Source of the DNA: Candidatus Gastranaerophilales bacterium
GTDB lineage: Bacteria > Cyanobacteriota > Vampirovibrionia > Gastranaerophilales > Gastranaerophilaceae
Length of the DNA: 64,000 nucleotides
Assembly: GCA_944324855.1 (NCBI GenBank)
Contig: CALUXY010000001.1
Span: 11,117-75,116 of the forward strand
Reading direction: 5' to 3'
Below, piece after piece: positions 40,822-41,717 of the stretch. The notes below the pieces were generated by a model. The model ran no database searches. It had not been told where the DNA came from and worked only from the letters and a program-made list of their open reading frames with translations. Positions within the stretch are counted from its first letter, which is position 1. Each line of letters starts with the position of its first letter. The translations under genes were made by a program, and so were the position numbers.

Positions 40822-40850
40822 CACAACACAATACATATTGTGTTATGGAA
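40822..40850. repeat. palindromic motif, copy 1 (CACAACACAATA-CA-TATTGTGTTATGGAA)
   Basis: The right arm is identical to the 41686-41717 copy. The centre dinucleotide is inverted and the left arm is slightly degenerate. Confidence 0.6.
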
Positions 40851-40990
40851 GAAGACGGTATAAAGATTTCAAAACTTTAGAGATAAAAGATAATTCTTTA
40901 CAAACTGTAATATTTTATTACCTCAAACAAACTGTGTGGTATGCACACCTGTCCTCGCACTTGTATTTCAAATAAATAATTTTACTTTCT

Positions 40991-41261
40991 GCCTCTGGCG
41001 GGTCTTCCAGACGGGGTCGCTTTGCCGCCAAAGCGACGTAAACCGGTACTCTGCACTACGTTCGCACATCAATTGTAACGCTCAACCCAAGCGGGTAAAC
41101 TCGGTTCTACGAACCTCAGACAATACCCGCCTTGTCGTTGTTTCGCTAACATTGATGGCTTACTTCGTGAAGAGTACACAGGGCAAAATGTTTTGTCAAC
41201 CTGAATTTTTAATCAAATGAGATTAAGTAGGGTAGACTTTAGTCTACCATTTATTATTGTT
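40991..41261 (+). ncRNA. candidate unclassified structured RNA (strand uncertain)
   Basis: A locally GC-rich island in an ORF-poor AT-rich gap. It contains several helices of 7 bp or more (see findings) and a terminator-like GGTAGAC-TTTA-GTCTACC with a T-rich tail on the + strand. I recognise no match to the RNase P, tmRNA or 6S consensus. Confidence 0.3.
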
Positions 41262-41685
41262 GGGCAAGTATGCCCAACCGACTGCCCCTGTTGTTGTTTC
41301 AATAAGTACTGATTGCTCACTTTATAAAAGTCGGGGGAAAGGTAATAAAATAATATAAATTATTAATTAATTTACTTAGTAATACTTTTACCCCTTTGAT
41401 GTTACAACCTTTACGGAATGAGCAAATAATATCTGCGGGGGTAAATGTAAGAAAAAGCAAGCATTGTCTGAGCGGTGATGTGAAAATAAAATAGTGCAAA
41501 TTAATTATTTAAAGAGCGAGTTTGCTTGATTTGTATTGAGTAATTATATTATTTAGTGAATAATATTCAATATTTGTCGGTTAATTTCAACCTTTATCAT
41601 TTACCACTGACTGCCAAAGAAATACCGGTGCCGGGTGTGGGGCGGCATAAGCCCCACTAATGTTATAAATTCTCTATTTATTAGC

Positions 41686-41717
41686 TTCCATAACACAATA
41701 TGTATTGTGTTATGGAA
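41686..41717. repeat. palindromic motif, copy 2 (15-bp perfect arms), immediately upstream of the giant gene
   Basis: TTCCATAACACAATA-TG-TATTGTGTTATGGAA ends 15 nt before the ATG at 41733. Candidate operator or hairpin. Confidence 0.7.

Follow-up and report, generated by a model that had tools for sequence, protein, structure and literature searches.

A probable inverton with lox-like sites in front of a giant gene in a gut Gastranaerophilales bacterium

In the fimS switch of Escherichia coli, a short noncoding segment of 314 bp lies between inverted repeats directly upstream of a surface-structure gene, small tyrosine recombinases (FimB and FimE, ~200 aa) flip it, and a promoter near one end of the segment reads outward. 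In Cre/loxP and FLP/FRT, the sites consist of palindromic arms around a short asymmetric center that sets direction, and a pair of inverted sites leads to inversion of the DNA between them. A promoter is not the only means of control, as the cwpV switch of C. difficile depends on an orientation-dependent terminator in the leader. Here we describe a locus with a layout like that of fimS, in a 64-kb stretch of DNA (the window) from Candidatus Gastranaerophilales, in which a noncoding gap separates rpsU from a giant gene. We consider it likely that this gap holds an inverton, an ~0.85-kb invertible DNA segment between two lox-like recombination sites.

The window was placed in Candidatus Gastranaerophilales, a gut lineage of the Melainabacteria, by exact-protein look-ups and a GTDB genome scan. 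Melainabacteria/Gastranaerophilales are a nonphotosynthetic sister lineage of the cyanobacteria that is found in the human gut. The locus was examined over window positions 40300–42100, and L-numbers denote the loci fetched for comparison, of which L011, L024, and L031 are of the window strain type. The gap had been singled out before, in a sequence-only reading, as ~0.93 kb without a credible open reading frame (ORF). No ORF in the gap is longer than 94 aa, a six-frame Pfam search of the gap at E ≤ 1 returned no match, and a tRNA/tmRNA scan found none; this description holds.

Inverted sites and an inversion between strains

Two palindromes bracket the gap, IR-L next to rpsU and IR-R next to the giant gene (Table 1), with the end of IR-R only 15 nt from the ATG of the giant gene. 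Compared as inverted repeats, 40819–40851 and 41685–41717 match over 33 nt at 94%; compared as direct repeats, they match at 83%. The center of IR-L is the reverse complement of the center of IR-R, and because the center is the only asymmetry of the palindrome, CA on the left and TG on the right, the sites are in inverted orientation. The sequence-only reading had described the right copy (41686–41717) as having perfect 15-bp arms around TG and the left copy as having an inverted center and a slightly degenerate left arm. Both descriptions are borne out (the arms of IR-L are 87% complementary), and all of its coordinates were found to be correct when compared with the sequence. The exact 15-mer half-site occurs at these two places only in the 64 kb; a relaxed full-site pattern recovers the same two and a single 3-mismatch match at chance level. 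Most probably, IR-L and IR-R serve as recombination sites between which ~0.85 kb can flip in front of the giant gene.

Strains of the window's species differ strikingly in this gap. The window strain type, taken as the reference, has a gap of 976 nt. In L036 (812 nt), positions 40927–41087 are deleted, which removes the left half of a GC-rich core. L025 and L033 (685 nt) are identical to the window up to 41288 and continue into an unrelated module of ~110 nt, and L012, a partial contig, has the core with 9 substitutions and unrelated sequence after 41177. In L037 (583 nt), the ends are inverted and the middle is replaced. Mosaic breakpoints recur at ~40921–40931, 41177, and 41288.

The comparison of L037 with L025 carries the argument for inversion. 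The 140 nt beside the left palindrome of L037 (63–202) are the reverse complement, at 99.3%, of the sequence beside the right palindrome of L025 (531–670). Reciprocally, the 112 nt beside the right palindrome of L037 (457–568) are the reverse complement, at 92%, of the sequence beside the left palindrome of L025 (63–174), a sequence that corresponds to the site-proximal block called module A in the window (40851–40931). The outer flanks, on the rpsU side and on the giant-gene side, are collinear in the two strains. With the ends thus exchanged and reverse complemented, the segment between the palindromes has been inverted in one strain relative to the other. When L025 is inverted in silico at the site centers, its junctions match those of L037 at 185 of 190 and 123 of 143 positions, as against 103 of 190 and 68 of 143 without inversion, and the inner half-sites are exchanged as expected. 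Both orientations therefore occur in nature, one in L037 and the other in L025 and the window, as a difference between samples.

The same giant gene is present in a sister species (L006, L016, L032, L034, and L145), where it follows rpsU after 170 nt and the element is absent. The 170-nt gap holds a single related palindrome just before the ribosome-binding site (RBS) and nothing else, which agrees with the earlier description of a discrete element (L006 and L032). An apparent degenerate left site in this element-less species was discarded as a candidate, since on alignment it proved to be the −35 region of module A. Among GTDB species representatives anchored on a neighboring 307-aa gene, none of nine loci has the core. 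What lies downstream of rpsU also differs between Gastranaerophilales species (L001–L010 and L015), being a zf_Tbcl gene, a helix-turn-helix gene, or the giant gene; such variability suggests that this is a hot spot of recombination, unrelated to the switch.

The site family, its linked recombinase, and a proposed switch

The core of IR-L, AACACAATA-NN-TATTGTGTT, is the same as that of the site adjoining genes for ~181-aa tyrosine recombinases elsewhere. It was found in 104 stretches of JGI metagenome contigs, none of them homologous to the window locus. Palindromy in these matches runs past the searched pattern, with outer arms that vary in step, and the broader pattern of the family is AACACAAT-N2-4-ATTGTGTT. 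A homolog of the ~181-aa protein is encoded in 35 of the 104 site-bearing stretches, mostly within a few hundred nt of the site. The recombinase gene lies either between two sites (L112/L116, L126, and L043) or beside two sites that are 140–210 nt apart (L042/L053/L105, L062, L144, L146, and L155).

Site pairs were read in L043, L053/L105/L042, L062, L093, L099, L112/L116, L126, L130, L144, L146, L155, and the window strains. In these lox/FRT-like sites, arms of 9–15 bp surround a center in which the only asymmetry, of 2–4 nt, lies. The centers are reverse complementary between partners in every pair: TC/GA, GG/CC, TG/CA, AG/CT, TCTC/GAGA, and TACA/TGTA, with CA/TG in the window strains. The JGI contigs (L041–L144) come from apparently varied environments and range from 29% to 49% GC, so that the system seems to reach beyond Melainabacteria. 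The inverted repeat of L130 continues for more than 20 nt past the site.

The ~181-aa protein matches Pfam PF00589 (E 3.6e-22), and the L112 recombinase scores 79 bits against a cutoff of 27. Matches of the latter to the XerA, XerD, and FimB/E-type "tyrosine-type DNA invertase" models of NCBIfam all fall far under their cutoffs; for NF007370 and NF007371, the FimB/FimE-type models that give the best matches to a named invertase, the scores are 51–53 bits (E ~1e-13 to 1e-14), below cutoffs of 221–222. The family is very large, with at least 7750 clusters (90% identity; E ≤ 1e-20); they carry no annotation beyond "site-specific integrase," and the name of one member gives its source as "Cyanobacteria bacterium SIG26." Its members consist of the catalytic domain only and have a conserved N-terminal (V/T)(E/Q)PIR(D/N) motif (for example, L112 3540–4106, L146 6001–6546, and L155 5001–5585). 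A serine invertase, suggested by the 2-nt center, was dropped as a candidate because the linked enzyme is a tyrosine recombinase; no serine-recombinase motif was found in window ORFs of ≥90 aa. The window holds an orphan copy of the system, with no recombinase gene found in its 64 kb. We infer that the cognate enzyme is a member of the ~181-aa family common in gut Melainabacteria, and as no recombinase is encoded near the locus, it would have to act in trans.

Two groups of recombinase-linked switches bear most directly on the window. L146–L153, the contigs with the SIG26 protein, have in succession the recombinase gene, a site, 188 nt, an inverted site, an RBS, and a 1772-aa FHA-domain gene, the product of which is 35% identical (E 3e-55) to the N-terminal 450 aa of the giant protein. 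In L154–L159, a recombinase and a site pair 209 nt apart lie downstream of a 3170-aa gene and upstream of one of 459 aa. In both L146 and L155, the stretch corresponding to the first ~35 nt of module A (GACGRCAT...AAACTTTAG) is conserved beside the site, placed as it is in the window. With recombinase, site pair, and giant-gene homolog adjacent to one another in these other Melainabacteria and module A conserved, the window locus appears to match them both in the kind of switch and in the kind of gene behind it. What sets it apart from the recombinase-linked switches is that no recombinase gene is nearby and that ~0.8 kb of extra noncoding DNA lies inside. The search for homologs of the giant protein's N terminus gave two matches, one of which is another element-less locus; the calpain-like peptidase C2 match at its C terminus is weak. 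The giant gene is itself highly polymorphic (loci L032, L033, L035, and L036): its product has 2093 aa in the window, against 2057 aa in the sister species and 1354 aa in several conspecific strains, and L035 has the gene divided between two ORFs.

Of the interior parts, module A alone is common to all strains, and it always abuts one site. It stands beside IR-L in the window, L012, L025, L028, and L036 and, reverse complemented, beside IR-R in L037. A promoter-like sequence in module A (Table 1) points out of the element across the neighboring site. The homologous block of the element-less species (L032), TTGTAA-18-TAAAGA, is directed at the giant gene, and module A of L037 has the same placement. 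The alternative + strand promoter-like sequence, which reads into the cargo, that is, the rest of the segment, agrees with consensus at 10 of 12 positions in L025 (TTTTCA-17-TATAAT), 9 of 12 in L037, and 8 of 12 in the window, where it falls under the scan threshold. A further promoter-like sequence, TTTACA-17-CATATT (40811–40839, +), has its −35 element in the fixed flank and its −10 element across the center of the left site, so that inversion would leave it in place, reading into the invertible segment either way. In L146 and L155, in the deposited orientation, a transcript from the module-A-like promoter block would run antisense into the recombinase gene at its 3′ end.

These features suggest how a switch could work. 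A tyrosine recombinase acting in trans on the inverted sites would flip, rather than delete, the DNA between them. In the window orientation, module A is at the end far from the giant gene, where its candidate promoter would read outward into the rpsU terminator, which is the fixed left flank of the switch, and the giant gene would be OFF. Read-through from the left would be stopped by the + strand terminator of the cargo. After inversion, module A would abut the site 15 nt before the start of the giant gene and could drive it. We predict that the L037 orientation is ON and the window orientation OFF because the homologous block of the element-less species faces the giant gene as it does in L037. 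The remainder of the segment, including the GC-rich core, would be strain-variable noncoding cargo behind the promoter, at most a transcriptional insulator. Intrinsic terminators inside the invertible segment recur in other switches of the site family, and the window has one on each strand; a terminator hairpin is present, for example, in each of the short inverted-site segments (140–160 nt) of L062 (961/1124), L130 (64/206), and L144 (12768/12919). Regulation of the giant gene by the element, which the sequence-only reading had implied, is thus probably correct, but its cis-regulatory RNA logic is not favored: the comparison of L037 with L025 places control at the DNA level, through inversion between recombinase sites.

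Table 1. Features of the rpsU–giant gene region in window coordinates.
Feature	Position	Strand	Sequence or structure	Remarks
rpsU	40583–40756			upstream neighbor of the gap
Intrinsic terminator of rpsU	40772–40804	both	15-bp stem, T tails on both strands	kept in all strains
Left recombination site, IR-L (most likely)	40819–40850		TTTCACAACACAATA-CA-TATTGTGTTATGGAA	
Module A	40851–40931			conserved site-proximal block of the segment, in every strain
Alternative promoter-like sequence	40866–40894	+	ATTTCA-17-GATAAT	
Promoter-like sequence	40874–40903	−	TTGTAA-18-TAAAGT	read from sequence
Weak terminator-like hairpin	40934–40948	−	5-bp stem, tail AGTTTGTTTG	also in L025
GC-rich structured core (cargo)	40990–41180		9-bp hairpin 41016–41037; 132-nt irregular hairpin 41046–41177	
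Intrinsic-terminator-like hairpin in cargo	41231–41258	+	GGTAGACTTTAGTCTACC + ATTTATTATT; hairpin 41231–41248 and T-rich tail	also in L025
Hairpin motif	41259–41288		TTGGGCAAGTATGCCCAACCGACT	ends at a recurrent mosaic breakpoint; window and L025 diverge exactly after 41288
AT-rich cargo module	41289–41685			window and L036 only; replaced by the unrelated module in L025
Promoter-like sequence in AT-rich module	41570 to 41543	−	TTGAAT-16-TATAAT	
GC hairpin in AT-rich module	41637–41657			
Right recombination site, IR-R (most likely)	41686–41717		TTCCATAACACAATA-TG-TATTGTGTTATGGAA	
Giant gene	41733–48014	+	2093 aa; LysM, FHA, calpain-like C terminus	presumed target of the switch

The GC-rich core and competing explanations

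The GC-rich core is a conspicuous part of the cargo, and the sequence-only reading had listed its helices. GC content at 40950–41150 is 0.49–0.55, compared with 0.34 for the whole window. Those helices belong to the minimum-free-energy fold of 40960–41290, for which z is −5.6 (+ strand) and −7.1 (− strand), with none of 100 shuffled sequences folding as well. A terminator-like hairpin with a T-rich tail, reported at 41231–41261, was also found by our scan, on the + strand with its hairpin at 41231–41248. These observations, like those on the palindromes, go far past what chance would give. The core is common to the window, L025, and L012. A motif related to the TTGGGCAAGTATGCCCAACCGACT hairpin is present in L037.

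It is a tentative possibility, although we doubt it, that the core is a functional structured RNA and the main point of the locus, either as a + strand small RNA (sRNA) running from a module A promoter to the terminator at 41231–41258 or as a − strand RNA or leader. Such an RNA would be compatible with a position inside an invertible segment. The strength of the fold on both strands speaks for it, as do the promoter-like and terminator-like signals that bracket the core on the + strand and the conservation of the core at ~95–99% in three strain variants. Three one-sided substitutions among these three near-identical variants preserve base pairs on the − strand but not on the + strand (G-C to G-U and, in one case, G-U to A-U). 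Together with two fixed wobble pairs, they favor the − strand, on which 98.9% of helix cells are paired, against 93.4% on the + strand. However, the strand signals conflict, with the promoter and terminator pointing to + and the wobble pairs to −, and the variants include no compensatory double change.

Searches for relatives of such an RNA also argue against it. An Rfam/Infernal scan, which had been proposed as a check, gave no match to the core in 40900–41650 or its strain variants at the gathering score or at E ≤ 10, with only noise driven by terminators and palindromes. No homolog of the core or other cargo modules was found beyond the same locus in conspecific strains when nhmmer and blastn were run against all fetched loci. 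A purpose-built covariance model of the core (R1) recovered only itself from the window and 99 metagenome loci. Blastn of the cargo against phages and plasmids gave nothing meaningful, and exact-pattern scans of viral contigs for the core and the site gave zero matches. Nor is there a trace of a decayed gene, in six-frame Pfam searches of the gap or with the recombinase hidden Markov model (HMM) run against six-frame translations of all variants.

Comparison of strains likewise speaks against a functional RNA. The core is missing from the sister species; L036 lacks its left half and has pair-breaking changes in the remainder, and L037 carries in its place a sequence with no unusual folding (z about −0.7). 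Of the earlier proposal of a novel sRNA or cis-regulatory RNA, then, the strong fold stands, whereas family membership, homologs, and covariation do not support it. Judged by its half-deletion in L036 and its replacement in L037, the core appears to be dispensable, and in our reading it is passenger DNA that lies behind the promoter of the switch and may act as an insulator.

Several observations weigh against a programmed switch. The inverted orientation is represented by one strain, L037, which comes from a different sample and differs in its middle cargo; it therefore demonstrates inversion during strain divergence and not reversible switching within a clone. All eight contigs of the L146 type are in a single orientation. 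The crossover is placed only within the central 24 nt common to both sites, and the promoter calls are weak consensus matches, with an oppositely directed candidate also in module A. In addition, tblastn at E ≤ 10 and an HMM at E ≤ 1 detected no homolog of the recombinase in the 64 kb of the window or in related Gastranaerophilales loci amounting to ~0.5 Mb.

The lone inverted strain, the loosely placed exchange point, and the lack of a recombinase in cis would fit a fixed structural polymorphism that arose by RecA-dependent recombination between the 33-bp inverted repeats, and the mosaic cargo with its several other breakpoints suggests that rearrangement is generally frequent here. We nevertheless find this explanation unlikely. 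An identity of 24–33 bp is near the lower limit for efficient RecA recombination. Moreover, the repeats contain, without change, the conserved core of sites that as a family are tightly linked to one recombinase family, they are placed relative to a homologous giant gene as in the recombinase-linked switches, and module A is conserved with those switches.

A third explanation, that the palindromes are operators for a dimeric transcription factor co-regulating two promoters, or RNA hairpins in a 5′ untranslated region, and that the ~0.8 kb between them is an unrelated insertion, seems very unlikely. It would account for the element-less species, in which a single variant, still palindromic through symmetrical arm changes, lies just upstream of the giant gene RBS, and for the overlap of the left site with TTTACA-17-CATATT. 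The half-site ACACAATA is shared with NrdR-like boxes (acaCwAtATaTwGtgt, a spacerless 16-bp palindrome in tandem upstream of nrd genes), a resemblance that serves as a lead only; the 9-2-9 spacing differs from that of the 16-bp box, and no nrd gene is involved at the locus. Operators would leave unexplained the inversion, the reverse-complementary centers in every pair read, and the presence of a linked tyrosine recombinase gene in 35 of the 104 loci. A MITE-like (miniature inverted-repeat transposable element) insertion, as the sequence-only reading had also suggested, is extremely unlikely despite the 33-nt terminal inverted repeats, the lack of an ORF, and the absence from the sister species, given that there is no target-site duplication outside the repeats, that the element is single copy in the 64 kb with no other copy in ~1 Mb of fetched DNA, phages, plasmids, or viral contigs, that no part of the cargo recurs in the window or in 145 fetched loci, that the repeats are complete recombinase-type palindromes and not transposase ends, and that the element is always at one locus, where strains differ by inversion and internal replacement.

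An inverton thus remains our preferred explanation, and the middle of the segment could then have a further role. It may be a platform that repeatedly acquires and exchanges noncoding modules (B, C, D, D′, X, and Y), with the core as a new structured RNA whose transcribed strand, and with it the activity of the RNA, would change whenever the segment flips and the giant gene is switched. We regard this combination as rather improbable. If true, a single recombination would act in reciprocal fashion on a regulatory or insulating RNA and on a giant protein that is secreted or at the surface.

Three stretches elsewhere in the window were noted in passing. The sole Rfam family to reach its gathering score in the window is the bacterial large signal recognition particle RNA (RF01854, 73.5 bits) at 8618–8874 on the − strand. 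The stretch at 7827–8042, which has the highest GC content in the window (up to 0.63) and lies outside all ORFs of ≥150 aa, resembles by eye the 3′ end of a minus-strand frame with a Gly-rich repeat rather than an RNA. At ~33970–35420 (L011 2406–3855), between mutS2 and lepA, lie a Gp49-like toxin/HTH_3 antitoxin pair and a 258-aa gene without an assigned function. All three genes are missing from related species such as L001, and L004 has the pair without the 258-aa gene; the stretch looks like a small variable insertion.

Comparison with known invertible systems

We found no report in the literature of phase variation in Melainabacteria/Gastranaerophilales, and the paper describing DeepInverton does not mention Cyanobacteria or Melainabacteria. 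The locus would thus be sequence-level evidence of invertible switches in this lineage and a first sign of phase variation there. Its presumed target, a giant strain-variable protein with LysM, FHA, and calpain-like regions, probably has a bearing on how the bacterium interacts with its host or with phages. The locus also points to a large, uncharacterized family of mini tyrosine recombinases with a short lox-like site, and such compact recombinase/site pairs could serve as parts for genome engineering. More generally, a conspicuous "structured RNA" signal can be passenger DNA within a switch that operates at the DNA level.

Among described systems, the invertons of Bacteroides (Mpi and Tsr, and those cataloged with PhaseFinder and DeepInverton) resemble the window locus in being invertible regulatory segments of gut bacteria upstream of genes for surface or secreted proteins, and many of them are orphans served by a distant "master" recombinase. 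They belong to another phylum, however, with another repeat consensus, and Mpi is an enzyme of the serine class. RecV of C. difficile, which controls the cwpV and flgB switches, acts in trans on several invertible segments, a mode of action that for the window is only inferred. The intrinsic terminators inside the window cargo and inside several members of the site family recall cwpV, although RecV belongs to a different recombinase subfamily and recognizes different repeats. In Hin/hix and Gin/gix, as in the window, the site is an imperfect palindrome around a 2-bp core and the cores of the two sites are inverted, but the enzyme linked to the present sites is a tyrosine recombinase (PF00589), not a resolvase/invertase.

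With Cre/loxP and FLP/FRT, the site family shares an asymmetric center between palindromic arms, seen in every site pair read. The asymmetry here amounts to only 2–4 nt in a near-palindromic center, and the enzyme is about half the size of Cre or FLP. The fimS switch is similar in layout, yet the linked recombinase, at ~52 bits against cutoffs of 221–222, is not an ortholog of FimB or FimE. The sites of fimS are 9-bp repeats with flanking half-sites, whereas the present ones are complete palindromes of 9-2(4)-9 or more. In the window, moreover, the recombinase gene is not adjacent, and the segment is ~0.85 kb with unrelated cargo rather than 314 bp. Overall, the window locus would be a phase-variation inverton of a kind already known, functionally of the fimS/FimB-FimE or C. 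difficile RecV type and with lox-like sites, made unusual by its orphan status and its large mosaic cargo.

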